From Eledone cirrhosa (lineage: Eukaryota): 64,000 nucleotides of DNA. A program made the translations under genes and the position numbers. The stretch lies in NCBI GenBank assembly GCA_964016885.1, contig OZ024742.1:101928001-101992000 (forward strand). Direction: 5' to 3'. Below the pieces are notes generated by a model that was not told the DNA's origin, did not search any database, and was given only the letters and a program-made list of their open reading frames with translations. This document shows positions 13,299 to 64,000 of the stretch, piece by piece; the first letter of the stretch is position 1; the number at the start of each line of letters is the position of its first letter.

Positions 13299-14142
13299 AA
13301 GAAAACTTAGTCATATGATTACATGTGCAGGTCTTTTCCAAAATTAAAAACCACCCCAAAAAGTTATACAAACTTGTTATTATAAGCAGTAGATTTTTAC
13401 CTTATTCATTCTTATATTTTCTAGTCAAATTCTTTAACTATTCCCAAAACTACAATATGTTGAAACGTAAAGAACTTTTATCAGTTAAAATAGAGCTTTA
13501 ACTCTTAAAATCCTTTATTTATGAAATCACAGAAGCAAGACATTCTTGAAAAGTACAAATCAGCACAATGACTGCATCATTTTAAAAATTAGTGTTTATT
13601 CTAATATTGCAAATTACCACAAAGATTTGCCCTCTATTAAAGATACTATAAACATTTAAATTCACAAACATATCTTTAGATATTTCCAGCTAAATCAATA
13701 CAGGATGTTATGAAAAATGTTGAAAGTTTCTAGAATCTGGTTCCTAAGAAATACATCAGTTTCCTCTTCTTTTTTATTCCTTATTTATTGTTTTATAATA
13801 ATAATTGTTATAATTTCCTTTTCTGCATTCTCTTCTGGCTTCTTGAATTTTGCAAGAGTTAGCACTTTTAATACCAAACTACGTGAAACTGTCTTGGATT
13901 TTATACAAAACTGCTCATTATAATTTTATTTTAGAAATTTCTGTTAAGTAATGTTATAAATATCAGTTTATTAATGAAAACGTATTTTAAATTCCTCCAA
14001 ATTTATTTTCAAAATTGAAACACATAAGCAGTGTATTTTATCAGAAATATGGTAATGAAAGAGTTAAATTTAACACTAAACAATAATATATCTTTTACCT
14101 ATATGATTTCATCATTTTGATATTCTTTTTTTTCTGTTCCAG

Positions 14143-16245
14143 TTTTGAGTCATGACTTAATGTGGTGTTCTGTTTATGAATATGACCCGAAAGTTACCTG
14201 TTACCTTCCAAAACATGTCCAGGCTAGCATGAAGACAGATACAATGGCAACGCGAGTGTTAGCCCTTGCACCATACGTCACTTCCTTGACCTTGAACTCA
14301 ACTCTCTCTGTATTTTTAGAATGCCATTTAGAATTGGTTCATCTTCTGTTAAATTCGGTTGTCTTTTTACGTGTCCAGTGCCACCCTGTCAATACGGAGT
14401 CAAACTGTTGTTGGAATATTATTGAAACTTTTCTAAAGCATGGCAAACTACAAGAATTTTCTTTGACTTTTGCCAAACGTAATGATGGCTTTGTCGGCTT
14501 CTTTGAACGTTTAATGAAAATTTGTGCTGGCATTCATGAATCTGACATTGTTCAAGATTCTAGCTTTGACTGTGATATATCTGATTGTTCTGAGGATGTG
14601 TTTGATGAAAATCCTGAGGGGGTTATAAACAATCTCGAATGTAAGAATGTTTATGATTTTGATTCTTCTATAGCCAAAAAACTGAAACTTCACTCAGAAA
14701 GTATATATTTTTATAATAATAATGATAAAAATAATAATGACTCTGGTGATAATCTTAATAATTGTCAAAGAGTATTTAATAATTCAAATTCTTTGTTTGA
14801 TAGTATTGGTGCTGTTGATAAGAATGATTGTAGTACAAATTGTGGAGATAACATTTCTGATGTTAGCAAGATGCAGCAGGTTTTAAACGAGAAACTGCGA
14901 TGTGAGAAAGAGTTCAATAGCTCAGCAGTCCATAAATTTAGTTGTTGTCAGATGAAGTTTAGAGAGAAAAAAGGAAAGAACAGAGATGCTCCTTTAACAT
15001 CTTCTGAAGAAAACTCACTGCTTACTTCGATGCTTTGGCATCAAAATCTTAATTCGCAAACCTCTTCTTCCAATGAATCTCATTGTCATACAAATATTGA
15101 AGCCAGTCCTACATCTCGTAAATGCCTGAGGTTTAGTCGGTTTGATTCCAAAAATCATGTTATCACCCCTTATTCGAAAAACATGAACTGTCTGAATGTG
15201 TCTTCAAACCAATTTGTAATGAATTGCTGCCATATAAAAGAACATTCAATTACTGCAGACAAGCTTTGCAAGCTCTGCTCCTATAGAATGAACAACTGTT
15301 TTCAATCCATGACTTCTTGCCCACATTCCATAAAGTTTGAAACTAAACGGAAGGCCTCCTATTCAGTATTAAATGCACTTCTCTCAAATTCTTATGATGA
15401 ACTTGCAGAAGCGAAAAAACTTCGACCTGCAGATCGATATCGTTACTGTAAGCCATTAGGAAAAGAATTTGGCTTCTGCTCTTCAACTGGGAAAGATTCT
15501 ATGTCACCATTTGACAATTCCTGGGATGATAATCTGCCAGTTTCTGGGTCTCTCTGCGAAAAAAATATTTCTGTTGTGAAGTGTTACCAAAATGCTGATG
15601 ATCTATCTCAAAGTGAGAAAGCCTCAAAAACACCTGATATGGGTTCCAGTACAGAAAGTGAAGTGCTTAATACAGATAGTTCAATAAGCTCAAGTGACAT
15701 TTCAACAGTGAATGATACATCTTCTGATCAAAATGGCTTTGAATCTTTTATAGGTAAGATAAAAGAGGAAAATGGAATATCAAACAAATCATGTTTTAAG
15801 CCTCCTCCCAGTCCCATTGGAAAGAAAAGAATACACTCTAGTGTAGATATAAAATCACGGAGAAATTCACCTGTCGATATCATGACATCAAAACAACTGG
15901 AATCCCGCCGAGTGTCATTTGATATCTATGCTGATTTAGATGAAGGCATTGTTTCTGAGGAAGAAACAACAAACCCCAAAATGGACTCTCCATTGTCAGG
16001 TTCGCAATGGCTGTCACCTTCAAACTGTAAGCAGTCTTCGCCAATATCAACACCAGGAAGCACCAAATCTGACAATTCATTGTGGGACCTTTGCTTGGAT
16101 TTGTCTAAAAAGATGCATCATTATTCATCAAAGGGTCTGAAATCACTGAGGCTTATTGGTGAACCTAATCCCCATATAGGGGATGTTTTAAGAGATGTTC
16201 TACCGATGTGGCCAGCTCTGCAAAAGTTGTACTTGAATGTATCTG
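14143..16245 (+). CDS. LRRC41: LRRC41-like 2.1-kb exon: LRR-like ends around a Ser/Asn/Asp-rich, probably disordered middle
   Basis: Long polypyrimidine tract + cag and gtaagt donor; open for ~700 codons (ORF 14145-16304); YVTSLTL and GLKSLRL...WPALQKLYLN LRR-like motifs; phase 1-1. Confidence 0.9.
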
Positions 16246-17325
16246 GTAAGTGTTATTTAACTATAAGATTTAATCGTAATTTTATTTTTGTTATTATTAA
16301 CTGAAGACCTTCCCATAATTTAAGAGGGCAGTCAAAGCTATAAACTTCATACAAAAGGTAAACTACTGCAGAAACTGGTATAGTAATTATGTTCAGTTCT
16401 GCAGATCATCACTTAGAGCTCTGTTAAGTACTTCTGCATCAGGTTGTATTGTACAGCTGAAGAAACCTTAAGGATAGCAGCCATGACTATCCTTTTCTAA
16501 GACTTCATTGTCCAATGTGTTCTTTTTTTATATGATTGGAGGTTTATTTGGTCCCTATTTCTTGTAGGTTATGTGCACATACAGGGACTCCAGTTTTTAC
16601 TGTGATATGTGTGCATGTAAACCTTTCATTGTTCTCAGATCTTAGCAGTAACAAGTTTAATAACTCTGCTTATCACTGTTCCTGCTATGTTGAAAAGTAT
16701 GTGACACTGTCACTTCACAGTTGAGTGGGTAGCAGTTGGACAGACAGGAACTGCTCCTACATGTGAAGCTGAAGGAAGGAAATTTATTGCAGGTTATATG
16801 TTGGCACAGTTCCAGGTTAGCCACTTTTCAGCAGACTTATATGATCAAAAATGTTCTAGCTGAGACCATTCCTTCTGTATATCAAGGATTACATTATTCA
16901 ATGCATCCTTTTAAAATTATTTGAGGAAGATTTGGCTGATATTTCTAGAAGGCTGAGTAACCACATAGAGGCTCTTTAAATGGCATTTTTACAGAATGAC
17001 CAGAATTATTGAATAGTGACAGCCAGTTTGGATTGTACTCTGTGCACTCATTCAGTTGAATGCAGGAACATATGTAAGCTAGATGTGGCCCCTGACCCAT
17101 CTCAGCAGTCTGTGGCTCTGGCAAAGTACAGACATGGTCTGTAACAACCTGTCTAACCCTTGCCTAATGGAAAATGGTTATTAAATGGTGTTGATATAAG
17201 ACAAGATATATAGGGGAATCAATTTTACTATAATTTTCAAAACTTGGTCATGATTTGCTAATTTTCAATGCTATATTTCTCACATGTAGGCTGTGTGTTT
17301 ACTGGATATTGTTTCTACATTTCAG

Positions 17326-18619: not shown

Positions 18620-19080
18620 ATAAGGTGGTAGTGTTGGGGCCTACCATGTAAGATAGTAGTGCTGGTGCCACAACGAAAAGCACTCTGTACTGTAAGGTAG
18701 TTGTGCTGGTGTCATGAAAAAAAGCGCCGTGTCCACTCTGTAAGGTGGTAGTGCTGGTGTCACGATAAAACGTACCCAGTCTACGCTGTAAGGTGGTAAT
18801 GTTGGTGCCACGATAAGCGTCCAGTCCATCATGTAAGGTAATAGTGTTGGTGTCACAATAAAAAGCAGTCTGCACAGTAAGGTGGTAGTGCTGGTGCTAT
18901 GATAAAAACCTCTATCTGCACTGTAAGTTGGTAGTGCTTGTGCCATGATGAAAAGCACCCTGTTTATAATGTAAGGTGATAGTGTTGGTGACGCGACAAA
19001 AGGCACCCAATCTACACTGTAAGGTGGTGGTGCTGGTATCATAAAATGCTCTTAGTATGTGCTGTAAAGTAGTTGAGGTC
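18620..19080 (+). repeat. ~48-bp tandem array derived from an RTE/SINE 3'-UTR module
   Basis: About 9-10 diverged units of gctggtgccacgataaaaagcacccagtccacactgtaaggtggtagt. Confidence 0.8.
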
Positions 19081-26442: not shown

Positions 26443-27108
26443 CTTCTCTTTGATCAACCATCTTTGTTTTGGTATTAGTGGCAAGACTATCATCATCATC
26501 ACTATTTAATGTCCATTTTCCATGTTTGCATGGGTCACTGAGGTACTCAGGTGACTGTCTTGCTTGTATGCTCCAGTTTTGACTTGGTTTCTACAGCTAG
26601 ATGCCCTTCCTAATGCCAACTACTTTACAGCATGTACTGGGAGTGACTCCAGCCCTACCACCTTACAGGGTGGACTGGATGTTTTTTTTATCATGGTACC
26701 AACATTACCATTCTACAGAGTGGACTAGGTGCTTTTCGTCATGACACTTGCACTTCCACTTTACAGATGGGCTAGGTGCATTTTATTCTGGCACCAGCAC
26801 TACCTCATTACACACTGGGATGCTTGGTGTGTCCTTGGTCAAACTGGTGTAGCATTGATGGGAGTAGGGGCAGGTTATGCTGCTTGGTAGGGTAGGGAAT
26901 GGGAGAGACATTCTCGTGTAGGTGAGGAAGTGCCAGGTGGCATCTACATATTTGGTCTTTCAGAACTGAATATATTGATTTTGGGGTTCTCTTCCTTATA
27001 TATACAATGTACTGGGTGTGTTTTATCAAGACACTAGCACTTGAGAGGTTGACATAACTAGTCAATCCTCTTGTCCATCTATTTCTATATTTATTGATGT
27101 GTGTGTGT

Positions 27109-50640: not shown

Positions 50641-53600
50641 CATCATCATCATCATCATCAGCGTTTAACGTCCGTGTTCCACGCTTGCATGGGTTTGGAC
50701 GGGGGTAGTCCCACTTGAGGCAAGAGTGATTGTCTTGCTCGCATAGGACTGTCTGGCAGGTTTTCTACAGTTGGATGCCCTTCCTAACACCAACCACATT
50801 TACAGTGTGGGTCTGGGAGGTTTTTACCGTGTTGCCTACACGGCCACATTACAGCGTGGACTGTGTGTTTTTTTGTCGTGACACCTACACGATCTCATTT
50901 GTTTCGGCCTCGATGGCGCGGCACCAACATAACTTTACATAGAACGGGGTGGTGTGGATCGGGTGGGGGTGGTGGGACGGGGTGTATTTGTTAGAGATGC
51001 CTACTGGCTGGAGTAGGTTTTACTATATATTTAGGTAAGGCGGGTCTTCTCTGTTACTGAGTACCGCCAAAGGTCTCGGTCCAGTGACATTGTCTTGGAG
51101 AGGTGTAAGTGTGTGATGTCGGAGTTTATCAGCTCGTCCCAGGTTTTTCTAGGTCTGCCTATTCCGTGACTACCGTCTATCTTTATTGCCCTGCACTTTG
51201 TTATACAGCTATCGACTTTCATGCGCATCACGTGTCCATACCAACGTAGCCTTCTCTCGAGTAAACAACATCTGATCCCTCTTATCTCTAATTTATTCCT
51301 TAGTTCGTTTATGCTTTGCCATTCACGTATATTACTGTTACACATCCAGCGGAGCATGCAAGCTTCGTTCCTCTCTAGTCTGCGTATATCCTCTGCACAC
51401 AATGCCCAGGTCTCACTGCCATGCAGCATTGCTGTTCGTATGCAGGCATCGTACAACCTGCCTTTCATTTTTAGTGAGAACCCTTTAGCAGCTAATAGTG
51501 GTATAAGCTCTCTGAACTTTTTCCAACCAGTTCTGACTCTAGCTACAGTACTTTCAGAGCACCCTCCCCCACTGCTGATTTTATCGCCCAGGTAACGGAA
51601 GCTGTCCACTATTTCTATAGAACCCTCTGCGCAATTGAAAGAGCTAGTAGTTTGTGGGCACTTGCTGCTACTTATTGCACCAGAGCACCGGCCACATGTA
51701 AAATCTATGTTCTTAGTTAGCCTACCTGTGATCCCACTACATCTTTTATGCACCCATACTTTGCATTTAGGACATAAAATGGAGTTTCTACCTACGCCTT
51801 TCCTACACACCGAGCACGACCATTTCCCAGAAGGGACCGCCGCCTTGTTTTCTTTCCTACAAACTAGTACTTTGGTCTTAGCCAGGTTAATTTTAAGTCC
51901 TTTTGACTCTAGGCCGTGCTTCCATGTTTGGAATTTCTTCTCTAGCTCGGCCATTGATTCCGCTATGAGTGTCAGGTCGTCTGCGTATAGGAGTTCCCAT
52001 GGGCAGCCTGTCTTGAACTCCTCTGTTATGGCCTGAAGGGCAATAATAAATAGTAGTGGACTGAGAACAGAGCCCTGATGGACGCCGACTTTTACGCTAA
52101 ACTCTTCACTATATTCGTTGTTAATTCTAACCTTGCTGACTGTTTCTTTATACATGGCTTGTATAGCCCTCACAAGCCATTCGTCAACGCCTAGTTTTCT
52201 AAGAGCCCACCAGATAATGGAGCGGGGGACTCTGTCGAAGGCTTTCTCCAAGTCGACAAAAGCTAAGTAGAGGGGTTTACCTTTAGCTAGGTACTTCTCT
52301 TGTAGTTGTCGTACTATGAAAAGAGCGTCTGTGGTACTTTTGCCTGACACAAACCCGAACTGCATTTCATCTAGGTCAATTCTCTCTCTGATTAGTTGCG
52401 CTATTACTCTTTCCGTGACCTTCATGACCTGGTCGATTAATTTAATGCCTCTATAGTTACTCCTATCTAGGGCGTCTCCTTTACCCTTATAACAGTTAAC
52501 GATGATGCTGCTATGCCAGTCCTTCGGAACAACCCCGTTTTGTACGACTTGGTTAACTATGCGGGTGACCATGGTGTGTCCCACCGTGCCAGATGCCTTC
52601 AGCATCTCAGCAACTATTTCCGAAGGCCCAGCCGCCTTACCAGTCTTCATATCCTTGATTGCCTTACTTATTATACTCCCCTCGACTAACACTGCTGGTC
52701 CCTCTATTGGGTCGATATGGGGGAGACTGCCTTTCTCCCAATTATTCTCCTCATTTAGAAGCCTTTCATAGTGACACTTCCAAGCTACCTTCTTATCAGC
52801 GTCGGTGATGGCAAGTGTGCCATCGTCGTTTAGTACACACTTCTCCCCGACAATATCACGGTTTTCCTTGACGCATTGCCTAGCAATCCTGAACACCTCA
52901 CGTTTTTGGTCATCGCGTTGTAGAACATGCTTGAACTTTCTTTCCTCAGCTTCCCTTCTTGCTAAGTACACTTGTCTCCTAGCTTCCCTCCTGGCCACTT
53001 GATAGTCCTCTCTACTTCCCCCATCCCGCCATACTTTCCAAGCCTGCTTTTTGGCCTTAATTGACCCCTCCACCTTACTGTTCCACCACCATGTTACTCT
53101 CCTCCTGCCTACAGGCCTGCTCCAGCCACAGACCTCGTCTGTCGCCAACAGCAGGTTTGCTTTCAGAAATTCCCACTCTCCCTCTATATTGTCCGACTGT
53201 AAATGTTCTTCCTTACTGTCGAAAGCATCAAGTAATATGCTTTGAAATTTATTCCTGGCTGTGGGGTCCTTTAACTTCCATATTTTCCTCCTGAGGATAG
53301 TCCTCTTCTGTTGTCGAGTACGTCTCGTCCTGACTATGAGGTCGCTAATTATCAGTCTATGTTGGGAGGTGCATTCTTCATGGGGGAGGGATTTAGTGTT
53401 AACAACAGACACTCTGTCACGTCTTCTGGTAAGGATATAATCTACCTGGCTTGTGTGTTCCCCGGATCTATAGGTGATCAGGTGATTGTCACGTTTTTTG
53501 AAGTTAGTGTTACAGATAGTTAGGTTATTTGCATCACAGAATTCCAGGATTCTGGAGCCTTCCTCATTTCTAGTACCAAACCCATAGCCTCCATGGATTT

Positions 53601-54186
53601 CGTCGTAGCCGTCACAATGTTGTCCAACGTGACCATTTAGGTCGCCTGCGATAATTATATAGTCACTGTCGGATATTTGGGAGGTAGTTAGCATCAGTGT
53701 CTCATAGAATCTGTCTTTTATAGTGCCGGGCAGTCCGGATTGGGGTGCGTACGCAGATATTACTGTCACCGTAGTTCTATTGAGGACAAGTCGTATTTTA
53801 ATTATTCTGTCGTTCACTCTATTTACGTCTATTATCTTATCTGCCCACTTTTCTGCTACCATGATTCCTACTCCACCCAGCCCATCGTCGTTTCCCACCC
53901 AGAAAAGCTTATAACAACGTTTTTTACCCTCAATGAACCTAGCAGACCCACCCCTCCACCTGGTCTCTTGAATACAACAAACATCGACCTCCTTACGTTC
54001 AAGCATTTCTACAACCTCGTTAGCGCGACCCTTTAGGGTGCCTACATTTATGGTACCAACTCTGAAGTTTTGGATTGCGTTTGGGGGTTGGGGGCGGTGA
54101 GGGGCGGGGGGCGATGGGGTTATGTTAGCCGTCCGCGGTCGAAACAATGAGGAGTGCTCGCATTCTCGTCCAAGGGGTGAATTTGT

Positions 54187-54190
<4 letters not shown>
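50641..54190 (-). mobile_element. Near-full-length RTE-clade LINE retrotransposon
   Basis: Single open frame; ~390-bp 3' UTR ending ggacgttaaacgc(tga)n; 5' end abuts an (AT)n tract; GC richer than the flanks. Confidence 0.95.
51031..54189 (-). CDS. RTE ORF: APE endonuclease + reverse transcriptase with internal PHD finger
   Basis: GTINVG, CIQET, GDLNGH, QVDY, SQHR (APE); GKAAGP, NYRGI, FVDLEKAFDRV, GVHQGSVLSP, LLYADD, FRYLG (RT); RRLRWYGHV and GRPRKTW (RTE C-terminus). The N-terminal 39 aa of the ORF-track protein is microsatellite read-through. Confidence 0.95.
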
Positions 54191-54222
<32 letters not shown>

Positions 54223-54849
54223 TATAAATATATACATGCACATATGTATATCATATATATATATATATGTATATATTATACAACACACCAAGCATTTTAA
54301 GGCCATATATATATAATTCCCATTAAGGATTTCATGTCATTTTAAGTGTGTGTCGATAAACCTTGTCACTTAAACAACATATCACCAAAGAGATCCCCCA
54401 CATGGGTCTCAGTATTTTGTCGTCCAACAATACCGCCATCTCTACATAATACACATCTGAATTTCATTTCTTAACTCTAGAATCCATTTCTGTTGTCATT
54501 TTGTTTAGTTTAATATTTTATTTTTTGTTTTGTTTAATACAGTTATTTTATTGATAGCTTTTGCAGCACAGCTTCCATTTAAAAACGTCTTGAGGCGACA
54601 AAACACATTACTTTGTTATGAGTTAATTGTCTTGATAGCTCCCATGCTGGATTGCATTTAGTGTAACTTTAGACGAGGATGTCTTTAATAACAACCTAAT
54701 TAAGTCTCGGCATCTTTCTAAAGGTTTTTACACTGTAATGCTAGCTGCCTGTGAATCCGATCACAAAGGATTCTATTACTCTTGTAACCAGCTTCCATAT
54801 CCAAACCACCTTCAGGCAATTGCATCCTGTTTCTCTCACTCATATATAT

Positions 54850-58538: not shown

Positions 58539-60940
58539 ATGTGCATTTATATATGTGTGTATATACACATGTATATATGTGTTTGTATGCCCCTCTACAT
58601 ATTCTAACATAGTAATTAGGTGTCAACTGGGACCATTGAAAAGTCTTGTACTCAATGAATTTCACATTGTTACCATTCTCAATGGGATGGGAAATGGGGG
58701 GGGGGTTTTCTGGCGACCATTTCAAGACAAAATCTTATAATTACTGAAAGTAGGAAAGCTTTCCTGTATTACTGTCTGGTGGTGGTGGTTGGCCTGTGAT
58801 TGTTGGTGAGTGGTGGTGGTGTGAATAATAGTTATGGAAGTAATGGTGGTGGCATGATGGCTGGGGAGATTGCCTTCTTTTACTGCTGCTATTAATTTCA
58901 TTTGCTAATTTGACATTTACTGGCATTACTATTGTGGTTACAAATGTTTAGAGATCTGGAGTAAATAAATGCCTTATAGGAGTTCAAAACCAACAATATG
59001 TCTTTGTACGAATATAAGAAATCATTTTAAATTCTTTTGATGCCAAATCACCTGAAGTCACCTCTGGTTCTGTGATATTAGGATATTTATTCTCACCTTT
59101 CATTGCCATATTTTTAATGAGATCCACAGCCTGATTAATTTAAAAAATAACCACAAATTTGAAGAAGTTGAATAAAATAATTAAGATTTCATTAGTAAAC
59201 TGGTATTTAGAACATTACTTAACAAACATTTCTGATGGCCAACTATACTACCAACCCATCTATCCAAATTTCTGGTTTTGTAACTTTGTTAAAAACAGTA
59301 TTTATAGTTATACCTGAAAAGATAAATAATTGTCATCACTGTTTAATGTTCAATTTCCATCCTTGCATGGGTTAGATGGTTCAGGTGTCTGTCTTGCTAG
59401 TAAACTCTGTATTGGGTTTGGTTTCTACAACTGGACATTCTTCTTAATACCAACCAACATTTCTGGTAGCATTTTATCATGACGCTGGCACTAGTATTGT
59501 ATTGGGTGCTTTTCATTGTAGTATCAGCTCTATCACTTTACAGACATGGGCTGGGTAGTGACTTTTCACTGTGGCACCAGCACTACCATCTTACAGGGTC
59601 GGTTGAGTGCTTTTCACCTTGACATCTACTGCCTTACGGGGTGAACTGGGTACCTTTTGTCATGGTACTAGCATTACCACTTTACATAGGTGGACTGAGT
59701 ACCTTTTGTCATAGGACCAGTATGACCACCTTACAAGTTGGATTGAGTATATTCATCTTGGCACGAGCAGTACCTCTTTACAAGTTGGACTTGGTGCTTT
59801 TTTTTTTTTTTGTAGTATCATCAAACGGAAAAGAGTAATTTACCTGATTTATTTGACTATTCTGTAGTTAATATGTACCTTATGGCAGCTTTTCATAATA
59901 AAAGCAAATAGATATCAAACACACACATACAAATTTTCATAAGGCCAAGTTTGAGTCTTGTTACTCTAGAGTTTCTCCTATGTACTTACAGGCTCATTAG
60001 ACAAGTAAGTGCATATGTGTCTTCGCGCATGAGAAAACTCAAAAAGGAAAAATAACACAATACAATAATTGTTTCTACTTTAGGCACAAGGCCAGCAAAT
60101 TACCCAGTGCATTACTGGTACTTTATTTTATCGACCCCATAAGGATGAAAGGCAAAGTTAACACAACACAATACAATAATGATAGTTTAATGCTTGATAT
60201 AGTTGGAAAAGAGTACTGAAGATTAAGAAATAGATGAATACATTAGCCCAAGGAACCATTTGGAGGAGAGATGAGCTCCTGTTTTGAAAGCAAAGCCAGG
60301 TGCAGCATTTGTCATCTGGCACAGTTGGCAATGAAAAGGGCAGTCACCATGTGTGTGTGTGTGTGTGTGTTTCCTGGTAAGATATTGGAGAAATAAAAAA
60401 AATATAAAGATTATGGCTGTTCTTTTGATTTTATGAAAGTAGGGCGATGGGGTAGTCATGTTTTAGTTGAAAATGTTGGTTCTTTAAATTTGTTGTTTTG
60501 AGGTCATTCTTTTAATTATGTCTGTGAAATATTGATTTCTAATTTAAGCACAGGGCCAATAAATTCTGGAAAGGGCAAATTGATTAAATCAGCCTTAGTA
60601 CTTGATTGGTACTTTATTTTATCAACCTTGAAAGGATGAAAGGCCGGTGGAATTTGAACTCAGATTGTAAAGAGCCAGGACAAATACTGCAATTACATTT
60701 TAGCTGTTGTTTTACCAATTCCACTCTCTGAAATGTTGACATCATGTCTGAAAATATTGACATTAACTTTAATGAAGTTTTTAACATGATTTTTATTCAC
60801 TATTTTTTTTTTTAAAATAGGACTTTTAGCTAGTGTTATTTCAGTCTCTTGTCTGGAAGGGTACTGGGCTTTGATCAAGGTAGTGTCTGTGTGTGTGTGA
60901 GAGAGAGAGTATATGCATTTTTGTATATGTATGTATATGA

Positions 60941-61702: not shown

Positions 61703-61822
61703 ATAGGAACGAGTATGACCCCGACGGCTGAGCTCAAGCCGTTTTGACGGCTAATTCTGGACGTCCAGAATTAGCCGTCGAAACGGCTTGAGCTCAGCCG
61801 TCGGGGTCCTACTCGTTCCTAT
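61703..61822. repeat. 120-bp spacerless palindrome (2 mismatches)
   Basis: Centre ctggac|gtccag at 61762/61763. Confidence 0.95.
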
Positions 61823-61938
61823 TACCCACTCTACTACCCTAAGTATTGAGTACTTTGGTGCATTATGGTCCACCTGGTTCCTTACCACATTTCCTCCGTT
61901 ACATATATATATATATATATATAGTTTTAATATAGATG

Positions 61939-61989
61939 AGATTCTACAGGACTAGAACTGTTTCATTCTTTAGAAATCATCAGGAATCT
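61939..61989 (-). ncRNA. Type I hammerhead ribozyme (Penelope-like element terminus)
   Basis: Minus strand AGAUUC CUGAUGA uUUC-uaaa-GAAu GAAA CAG-uucuaguc-CUG UA GAAUCU; stems I and III pair perfectly; first stem II pair is U.U. Confidence 0.8.
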
Positions 61990-62012
61990 GGGTATCAAAA
62001 AATAAAAATGGT

Positions 62013-62073
62013 ATTTATAGGTCTCTACAAGTGGTAGGAGAGGGTGGGGAGTGGGATGGGTGTAGGTCATTGG
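62013..62073 (-). promoter_or_regulatory. Candidate Pol II promoter (CCAAT + TATAAAT) upstream of the minus-strand hammerhead
   Basis: attgg at 62069-62073 and atttata at 62013-62019 on +; the TATA lies ~24 nt before hammerhead stem I. Confidence 0.45.
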
Positions 62074-62483
62074 TTGATAGAAAAGGGAATTCATTAAAAG
62101 CTAATTCTACAAAGCTATAGTTTATTTTTATTTATTTATGTTTTTAGAGTAACAAAGGCAGACAGAATTCTATAAACATGTTCCGGATGGCATACCATTC
62201 CTTGTCATTACGTTTCTCTTAAGCTAACAGATGTCTATAAGATCAGTGGGGGGTCAGTCATGGTAGATAGAATTAAAGAAAAGGGAGATTCTTTAAAAGC
62301 TAAAATCATTAAGGTTCTACTAAGTGACAAAGGTTTAGAGAATTCTGTAGACAGATTCAAAATACTGAGTGCATATCTTACAATTATCTTCGAACTTCTC
62401 TTAAACTAATCAACTATATGCCAAAAATCAACAGACACATTCACAAAAAAACATACTCACCCACACACTCGCGTGCAGCCATA

Positions 62484-62584
62484 AACACACATACACATAT
62501 ACACACATAAAAACACACACATACACATATATATAAAAATATATTTATATACATACATATACATACACACATACATATATATAT

Positions 62585-62631
<47 letters not shown>

Positions 62632-62650
62632 TATATACATACACACACAT

Positions 62651-62697
<47 letters not shown>

Positions 62698-62766
62698 CAC
62701 ATATAAATACACTCACACACATACATACAAACACAAATATACATGTGTATACATATACACATAAAT

Positions 62767-62809
<43 letters not shown>

Positions 62810-62818
62810 CATACATAT

Positions 62819-62861
<43 letters not shown>

Positions 62862-62933
62862 CATACATATATATATATATATATAAAATACAAATACACA
62901 CACATATATACATATACACACACATACACACAA

Positions 62934-62968
<35 letters not shown>

Positions 62969-63096
62969 CATAAACAAATACACACACATATATACATATA
63001 CACACACATACACACAAACACACAAACACACACACACACATATATATATATATACATAAACAAATATATACATATACATACACACACACATACATA

Positions 63097-63144
<48 letters not shown>

Positions 63145-63162
63145 TATATAAGGAAAAAGCAC

Positions 63163-63230
<68 letters not shown>

Positions 63231-63285
63231 CACCATTCATACATATATTCATATATATATACATACACATATATATATATATATA

Positions 63286-63342
<57 letters not shown>

Positions 63343-63395
63343 ATACATACATACATATATACACAAATACATACACACATATACACACACACACA
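62484..63395. repeat. Compound (CA)n/(TA)n/(GA)n microsatellite
   Basis: Directly visible. Confidence 0.95.
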
Positions 63396-64000
63396 ATACA
63401 AAAGTGAGTTACAAACGAAACGAAATTTAATTTCGTTTCGTTATTTGTTTTTATCGTCTCCGCTGAACCGGTACGTACTCACGCTCTATGCAAATTAGTC
63501 TGCCCACTACTAATTTTCATAGAAAAAGCATATAACGATATGTGCTTTTACGATTCTCTAGAAAGGCCGGAAGATAGGTAAATATTGCTGATGAGATGTA
63601 ACAACATCGAAACTAGTCCAATATTCCTTGTCTGGCTTTCTGGAGAATAGAGGAAAGGTGTTTCCTCGAAAACCAGTATGACTCTAAAAACCGGTTTGTC
63701 TGTGTGTTTACATACAGAATAGCTGGACACTCACAGTAAAGTGTCCAGTGAAAAACTCGGTACATCTACATATGTACACGTGTGTGTATTCATATGCATA
63801 CTAGTATTTCAGTATACATATGTGGATGTACATTTTTAATTTAATTGTTTAAGCGTCAGTCATACAAAAGTGAGTTACAAACGAAACGAAATTTAATTTC
63901 GTTTCGTTATTTGTTTTTATCGTCTCCGCTGAACCGGTACGTACTCACGCTCTATGCAAATTAGTCTGCCCACTACTAATTTTCATAGAAAAAGCATATA
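63396..64000 (+). mobile_element. 466-bp tandem hammerhead-containing repeat (non-LTR retrozyme or Penelope-like pLTR)
   Basis: 63396-63534 is identical to 63862-64000; the unit contains the hammerhead and many hairpins and starts directly after a (CA/TA)n tract. Confidence 0.8.
63581..63625 (+). ncRNA. Minimal type I hammerhead ribozyme with intact core
   Basis: Stem I AAUAUUG/CAAUAUU, CUGAUGA, stem II GAUGU-aaca-ACAUC, GAAA, palindromic stem III (A)CUAG(U), GUC cleavage triplet ending at 63618. Confidence 0.92.

Follow-up and report, generated by a model that had tools for sequence, protein, structure and literature searches.

RZ1, a recently active non-LTR retrozyme family in an octopod, with Penelope-type insertion anatomy and an A>G footprint

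At its 3' edge, the 64,000-nucleotide stretch of Eledone cirrhosa DNA analysed here (the window; C3:101928001-101992000) carries a 466-bp repeat that an earlier note read as a candidate genome-encoded, viroid-like circular RNA. This raises the question of whether the repeat, which we call RZ1, is a genuine retrozyme, and from what template and by which enzymes its copies were inserted. The repeat itself was as described: 63396-63534 and 63862-64000 match at 139 of 139 nt (100% identity, spacing 466). The array continues past the window to window-equivalent position 65249, comprising 3.98 copies with zero differences, and terminates at a "short" 3' end (unit position 456) abutting (TA)n. Its features inside the window are as follows.

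63396..63861, + strand: RZ1 unit copy 1, 466 bp (from the direct repeat and the array extension)
63862..64000, + strand: start of RZ1 copy 2; the rest of the array lies beyond the window
63487..63521, + strand: hairpin (unit 92-126), a hotspot of array-fixed A>G changes, containing the octamer ATGCAAAT
63581..63625, + strand: type I hammerhead with palindromic ACUAGU stem III (from motif and Rfam score); predicted cut after C63618
63846..63920, + strand: region between the two fixed 3' ends, short (unit 449-457) and tail (unit 55-61), from insertion ends

The unit is CpG-rich, as had been claimed (observed/expected ratio 1.18 versus 0.32 for the window, a value reached by 1 of 136 window bins), and its GC content is 36%. 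It is also non-coding, with a longest stop-free frame of 60 codons over both strands of the concatemer; it has no RT/GIY-YIG ORF, is not an autonomous Penelope-like element (PLE) and, judged from the array ends, is without LTR organisation. Two details needed revision: position 63396 is merely the 5' truncation point of this one insertion and not a unit boundary, and a length of 466 nt is not unusual, given a published retrozyme range of 51-972 bp in the accessible text of bioRxiv 10.64898/2026.07.22.740005. The hammerhead motif (stem I AATATTG/CAATATT, CTGATGA core, stem II GATGT/ACATC, GAA, ACTAGT and C) is complete and canonical in four consecutive array positions, starting at 63581, 64047, 64513 and 64979, the second of which had been predicted at about 64047-64091. 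The Rfam check was divided: Hammerhead_HH9 was found with 38.9 bits (E 2.7e-8), but the cut-off of 52 was not reached, and the scan of the window hammerhead gave no match at gathering score. RF00163 is absent from the Rfam E-value output, which keeps the best clan member alone. The stability of the isolated 58-nt hammerhead motif was ordinary (z -1.5).

Exact-pattern searches of the whole genome returned at least 1,994 junctions between the RZ1 tail and (TA)n and at least 1,606 hammerhead cores, with 0 control hits in each case; because the patterns were exact, both counts are lower bounds. A DNA search gave at least 311 RZ1 matches from the 39 of 389 candidate regions that were scored. Insertions were compared in a sample of 85 loci, made up of the 33 best matches (biased towards young and long arrays) and the first 56 junctions listed on contig C1, from which one duplicate was dropped, two fell in one locus and a few were too short to score; the genome-order loci are thus all on C1. 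RZ1 subfamilies range in identity from 100% down to about 89%, and young arrays are 100% identical across chromosomes. Non-LTR retrozymes are recognised by a type I hammerhead in at least two consecutive units, a non-coding unit, GC below 50% and, when present, target-site duplications of more than 4 bp. With its tandem hammerhead units, non-coding sequence, stable fold and dispersed tail junctions, RZ1 bears out the earlier assignment to this class: it is a recently active, genuine non-LTR retrozyme family in an octopod, the class being already known. Low-depth pieces in organisms B and C were left out as evidence of spread.

Two further tandem hammerhead families were found in the same loci.

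L031 7724-8680, and L052, L054, L060, L089, L036 and L090: RZ2, with the inverted-arm and tail design of RZ1
L033 1-1392, and the end of L062: third tandem hammerhead family, 310-nt unit, unrelated to RZ1

RZ2 is a sister retrozyme with a unit of ~430 nt, 61-63% identity to RZ1 and ACUAGU in common. The hammerhead of the 310-nt family has a stem II like that of PLE-A, described below. The octamer (63488-63495) lies within a 10-nt block that is invariant between RZ1 and RZ2, and it is kept in 73 of 78 loci, four of the five exceptions being A>G only. Newt satellite 2 has an snRNA-type promoter. A role of the octamer in a promoter of this type gained no support, two U2 upstream regions having neither the octamer nor a significant RZ1 match; the U2 snRNA genes form a tandem array with a period of ~2.2 kb at C3:307349256-307453739. 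According to the part of PMC6765202 available to us, newt satellite 2 and Schistosoma Sm-alpha are tandem hammerhead repeats processed to monomers, a design like that of RZ1. Unlike them, RZ1 has no tRNA-derived part that our search could find.

The window array lies inside a PLE, designated PLE-A, whose features are listed here.

61923..63395, - strand: PLE-A inverted 5'-truncated arm, with pLTR and microsatellite-rich 3' UTR (99% over 578 nt to the PLE-A forward arm in L031)
61939..61989, - strand: PLE-A hammerhead, different from that of RZ1 (from motif)

The microsatellite sequence of this arm resumes beyond the RZ1 array, and about 70 nt past the array there is a 5'-truncated, frameshifted RT-EN ORF with a CxCX5C linker. 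Because the arm is interrupted and has its own pLTR and hammerhead, RZ1 was inserted into the (TA)n of an existing PLE-A copy. PLE-A has the features of the Hydra clade (C-terminal GIY-YIG, CxCX5C linker, (TA)n target and hammerhead), to which its sequence assigns it by the linker definition, although the GIY-YIG domain was under the Pfam cut-off (E 0.0037). A member of this clade, Hydra-1_Obim, is known from an octopus in the consulted part of Craig et al. 2021 (PMC8557442). The window array therefore represents a single, very young insertion with one arm, placed inside a Hydra PLE copy that is older than itself. Judging from sequence identity, PLE-A is itself young and abundant: all 116 scored matches, from 84,304 first-look candidates, had 95-100% identity, and many of the 116 contained a 758-aa open frame. 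In L031 (3322-7682), PLE-A has a microsatellite-rich 3' UTR of ~2.6 kb that is a target of later insertions.

This proximity bears on whether RZ1 is simply the pLTR of an autonomous PLE family, its arrays being truncated remains. A PLE ORF does lie close past the array, and homology between retrozymes and pLTRs is reported by Li et al. (bioRxiv 10.64898/2026.07.22.740005, in the portion available). The adjacent PLE-A, however, has its own, dissimilar pLTR and hammerhead, and the array interrupts its 3' UTR. RZ1 showed no similarity to the PLE-A pLTR, with 73 of 100 shuffles scoring equally high, so that the pLTR of this neighbour, which the earlier note had named as the alternative, is a different sequence from RZ1. 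Nor was RZ1 significantly homologous to any 3' end of the four PLE families compared (including PLE-A, PLE-C and PLE-E). One above-shuffle score, to an element beside a second Hydra family, was discarded as a low-complexity match. Furthermore, in a search with five PLE fragments, PLE coding sequence abutted 2 of 166 RZ1 5' flanks, both times as an inverted arm. We regard present-day pLTR status as very improbable, whereas an ultimate origin of RZ1 from a pLTR is likely.

The ends of the insertions were next informative. In the first set (33 best-match loci), 29 of 58 3' ends fell at unit 449-457, 25 at 55-61 and 4 elsewhere, and the fixed 3' ends nearly all abut (TA)n; the 61 5' ends of this set were scattered round the unit (Rayleigh p~0.2). 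In the genome-order set, an inverted partner was joined 5' to 5' to 34 of 54 tail-ended arms, with 1-5 bases often in common at the arm-arm junction. The far ends of these 34 partners were short in 26 cases, tail in 0, other in 4 and cut off in 4, so the region between the two fixed ends is a one-sided, PLE-type tail of ~68-74 nt, with a 13-bp hairpin at 63880-63908. ATTATAA occurs on both insertion flanks of L044; target-site duplications are otherwise masked by (TA)n. The autonomous PLEs of the same genome have the same design, with tails of 68 nt (PLE-A), ~59 nt (PLE-C) and ~39 nt (PLE-E), and the inverted arm with a one-sided tail has been described for PLEs by Craig et al. 2021 (PMC8557442, in the text available). 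According to the same text, EN+ PLEs of the Hydra and Neptune clades resemble RZ1 in 5' truncation, inverted 5' arm, one-sided tail, (TA)n preference and a sense-strand hammerhead; RZ1 differs in having no ORF, a tail of ~70 nt rather than 30-40 and up to 16 tandem units. RZ1 thus carries the insertion hallmarks of PLEs, namely an inverted 5'-truncated arm, a one-sided tail and a microsatellite target. The suggestion that Penelope-like elements mobilise it finds its evidence in these fixed ends on (TA)n, random 5' truncations and arms: from insertion anatomy, RZ1 integration is PLE-type, and the enzymes of Penelope-like transposons most likely pasted the copies.

If a single insertion had seeded the repeat and its arrays then grew in place by slippage or unequal crossing-over, RZ1 would instead be a local satellite, a scenario discussed in the accessible part of Li et al. 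2026. DNA-level events do occur: L167 and L168 are one RZ1 insertion present twice, ~18.6 kb apart, by local duplication, and the higher-order periods of some arrays could be DNA duplications. Local growth is nevertheless highly unlikely as the general account, since the roughly 2,000 insertions are dispersed and each has precise ends, inverted arms and variants of its own that both arms share, and the A>G skew described below is strand-specific.

What, then, was copied? Neither fixed 3' end coincides with the ribozyme cut (unit 223/224), and 5' ends were not enriched there (0 of 61 with 1.4 expected, and 4 of 88 with 2.1 expected). A cut linear monomer copied from the tail end would yield at most 302 nt, a length exceeded by 46 of 54 tail arms, and the longest RZ1 arm, 15.8 units, runs through the cut. 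Because the ends ignore the cut and the arms outrun the linear monomer, the template would have been a circle or an uncleaved multimer. Copies diverged by 0.31% within arms and 0.42% across inverted arms, against 5.8% between loci, and a rare variant may be common to both arms, as is C91T in 19 of 19 copies of L047; these observations support the derivation of each insertion from one template. Among the 31 loci with at least five long copies, 16 were homogeneous and 15 mosaic, 2 of the latter being two separate insertions. Mosaic arrays require multimeric templates or template switching, and higher-order periods of 2 (L039, L040 and L057), 4 (L062) and 6 (L182) were found; multimeric templates therefore also occur. 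The proposal that transcripts mature to a monomer and then a circle thus survives in part, the array anatomy pointing to a circular template that was not always the 466-nt monomer. L182 (267-8740) is an array with a 463-nt period and a 6-unit higher-order pattern, and its tail arm jumps from unit position 29 to 321 after 31 nt.

If the template were instead an uncleaved linear multimeric transcript, still inserted by PLE enzymes, circles would be absent or by-products. Mosaic and periodic arrays would follow naturally, as would a median tail arm of just 1.35 units in the genome-order set, and cleavage could be slow, given a stem III pairing probability of 0 in the modelled monomer. The homogeneity of 16 of the 31 long arrays speaks against it, as does L158, where A93G, A97G and A98G, private to this locus, occur in 14 of 14 copies and both arms, whereas the units of a multimer would be edited independently. 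Truncation would, moreover, shorten linear templates each generation, yet arms of 10-16 units exist. We consider the linear multimer unlikely and an RNA circle the probable template, in line with the model of circle plus PLE RT proposed in PMC7229834 and PMC4209133, as far as their available text goes. In the literature covered, no experimental study of the PLE mechanism was found. A 495-nt contig from a sequencing run, lying on L031 1455-1950, equals a closed unit of 465 nt that differs by four A>G changes; it was left out as evidence because tandem DNA would assemble likewise.

Folding models were examined for the RNA itself. The circular unit was predicted to form a branched structure of -154 kcal/mol with 67% of bases paired (z -10.5, 100 shuffles), in which stems I and II had probabilities of 0.66-1.0 and stem III did not pair. 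A hammerhead dimer joined via ACUAGU was modelled at -16.4 kcal/mol versus a cofold minimum of -16.8. The models make it probable that RZ1 hammerheads cleave as dimers, a behaviour described for palindromic stem III motifs in the accessible text of PMC7229834 and PMC4209133. RZ1 stem III resembles that of axolotl HHR_Amex1, with one pair and a palindromic tetraloop, and HHR_Amex1 is efficient as a dimer (PMC7229834, same text); in a published cleavage test, 1 of 9 predicted Xenopus dimers was cut (bioRxiv 10.64898/2026.07.22.740005, available portion). At the locus level, variable sites numbered 0 of 7 in CUGAUGA and 0 of 4 in GAAA, versus 123 of 466 in the whole unit. In an older RZ1 subfamily, an A-U pair of stem II has become U-A by compensatory change (15 loci), and the cut triplet is mostly GUU. 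Shared changes mapped onto the predicted circle comprised 6 compensatory, 17 tolerated and 16 pair-breaking ones. Together with the invariant core, the predicted stable circular fold supports RNA-level constraint on RZ1.

The description of the repeat as viroid-like, taken in the sense of self-replication, was not supported, with a ribozyme in one polarity alone and a branched fold. A viroid-like RNA that replicates from RNA to RNA and is only occasionally endogenised would fit the highly structured circle, and RNA replication has been suggested for plant retrozymes in the consulted part of PMC4918200. Rfam and motif scans, however, found no minus-strand hammerhead or other Rfam ribozyme in RZ1, and the complete identity of young arrays across chromosomes is unlike an error-prone replicon; we judge such a replicon to be extremely improbable.

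Analysis of sequence changes revealed a skew of a particular kind. In tree parsimony over 78 loci (5 of 83 were left out as poorly covered), terminal multi-copy changes included 21 A>G versus 4 T>C (n=47, p 4.5e-4), and the hairpin at unit 92-126 had 15 A>G versus 0 T>C. A102 and A168 were each hit four times, and the 5' neighbour was G in 3 of 51 A>G events versus 24 of 145 A sites. Among changes fixed in an array and rare elsewhere, 11 of 26 (8 loci) were A>G and none T>C, whereas single-copy changes comprised 15 A>G and 25 T>C (n=181; Fisher p 3e-5 against array-fixed). A looser neighbour test gave 16 A>G versus 3 T>C (13 versus 3 loci of 83, p 0.013). The three tests draw on overlapping loci; L168, the duplicate of L167, was left out, as were the narrower extracts of loci extracted twice and, from the neighbour and tree tests, L041 and L155 (two insertions each). 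When distinct changes in young arrays were first pooled, their spectrum had no A>G excess (9 versus 14 T>C), and the split into fixed and single-copy changes was chosen after inspection of the data; 20 held-out loci alone gave 3 versus 0, the same direction (p 0.12).

Clustered, strand-specific A>G change with 5' G avoided is the trace of ADAR, and cephalopods are an animal group with heavy A-to-I editing. Reverse transcriptase errors would be expected on single copies, and DNA mutation should be roughly strand-symmetric. In addition to the L158 cluster, L175 has five A>G changes within 22 nt in 4 of 4 copies. An A>G cluster in every copy of a 13-unit arm implies that one edited unit became the entire array, for which a rolled circle would be a simple explanation. 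Internal tree branches, on the other hand, had no A>G skew (21 versus 16), and G>A also exceeded C>T (20 versus 9); therefore, selection for pairing or mis-polarised changes may contribute. Such selection, under which A-U to G-U would be tolerated and U to C would not, could produce the skew as a whole, and so could DNA mutation linked to transcription; the A>G sites were paired no more often than other As (16 of 24 versus 92 of 146). The excess of C>T over G>A that selection predicts was not obtained (3 versus 7), and clusters of 3-5 A>G in one hairpin, recurrent sites and their scarcity after G speak against it; we hold this account possible but doubtful. The array-fixed skew fits A-to-I-edited circles copied by rolling-circle reverse transcription. 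We lean, by a little, towards the wider proposal that germ-line rolling-circle reverse transcription of ADAR-edited circles makes edits heritable, multiplies them along arrays and is a main source of RZ1 change.

The partner element is indicated less clearly. In three loci an RZ1 arm is joined to the arm of a Neptune-like PLE: L050 (PLE-C), L154 (Neptune PLE-E) and L181. The first two obey the one-tail rule; L181 has two tails and resembles a deletion between neighbouring insertions, and deletions may therefore explain all three junctions. L095 was rejected as a chimera, adjoining an old PLE fragment without a (TA)n end. No standard hammerhead core was found in the PLE-E arm of L154. Neptune-like PLEs with ~59-nt and ~39-nt tails were seen at L050 and L124-L153, and at L154, L181, L067, L084 and L086. 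Tail length (68 versus 68-74 nt) gives a weak hint that PLE-A might be the partner.

Other features of the window and loci were noted, two of them coding.

14121-16304, + strand: 727-codon exon of an uncharacterised octopod gene
51031-54336, - strand: 1,101-codon LINE ORF with AP endonuclease, RT and PHD finger

The exon has 81% identity to a protein of Octopus sinensis and 69% to one of Argonauta, which places the host among the octopods; no Pfam match was found. Between (TA)n tracts at 61706-61900, a near-perfect inverted repeat of ~58 bp is followed by a one-sided extension of ~79 nt, and has the look of a very small PLE-type insertion from a different family; L144 and L190 are flanked by similar sequence. 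An abundant PLE-type end in L042 (4440-4600), L060 (1-270) and L053 has a hammerhead-like motif with the core CAGAAGA, not CUGANGA. Degenerate 47-49-bp tandem repeats at 18647-19046, 26649-26812 and 59632-59749 look mutually related.

Taken together, RZ1 is probably a non-autonomous Penelope-like element that belongs to the non-LTR retrozymes and uses a circular RNA template. In the mechanism we propose, tandem arrays would be transcribed, and adjacent hammerheads would pair via ACUAGU and cut the transcript into 466-nt monomers and some multimers, as the motif, covariation and published homologues suggest. A host ligase would close these RNAs into structured circles, where a single hammerhead would be unable to form stem III, and ADAR may occasionally edit double-stranded parts of the circle, as the A>G footprint suggests. 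A PLE RT/GIY-YIG endonuclease acting in trans would then nick a (TA)n tract, in keeping with the insertion anatomy, and on each strand priming would start from one fixed point, the two points lying ~70 nt from each other. The template would be copied over 0.1-16 turns, and two 5'-truncated products would join head to head, as seen in the arms.

Compared with the metazoan non-LTR retrozymes of coral, mussel and axolotl in the consulted part of PMC7229834, RZ1 is alike in its non-coding tandem units with type I hammerheads, GC below 50%, stable fold and absence of LTRs, and differs in its octopod host. That part does not describe inverted arms, a one-sided tail, targeting of (TA)n or an A>G footprint, and it names RNA editing just as a possible cause of mussel circRNA heterogeneity. 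The available portion of bioRxiv 10.64898/2026.07.22.740005, whose length range includes RZ1, also concludes that retrozymes depend on PLEs; its evidence is co-occurrence and pLTR homology, mostly from vertebrates, with no mollusc among the classes listed, in contrast to the evidence for RZ1, which is insertion anatomy, no homologous pLTR having been found. Neither cephalopod retrozymes nor an editing footprint in retrozymes were found in the literature covered, which left most subscription papers out; RZ1 is provisionally the first cephalopod retrozyme, and its editing footprint provisionally unreported.

RZ1 adds both a new family and a new host group to a known class, and its value is that of a test system. 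In the sources available to us, PLE mobilisation and the circular template of animal retrozymes have so far rested on co-occurrence or analogy. The roughly 2,000 RZ1 insertions include many young ones; they give a direct view of PLE-type integration and preserve the variant pattern of the template. Because the genome also contains intact PLE ORFs, a partner assay is feasible. The A>G footprint points to the writing back of RNA edits into the genome. If this is true, each array would be a record of one RNA molecule, whether a monomer, dimer or higher circle, and the insertions would support, from the side of the genome, the proposed model in which PLEs and retrozymes transpose through a circular template.
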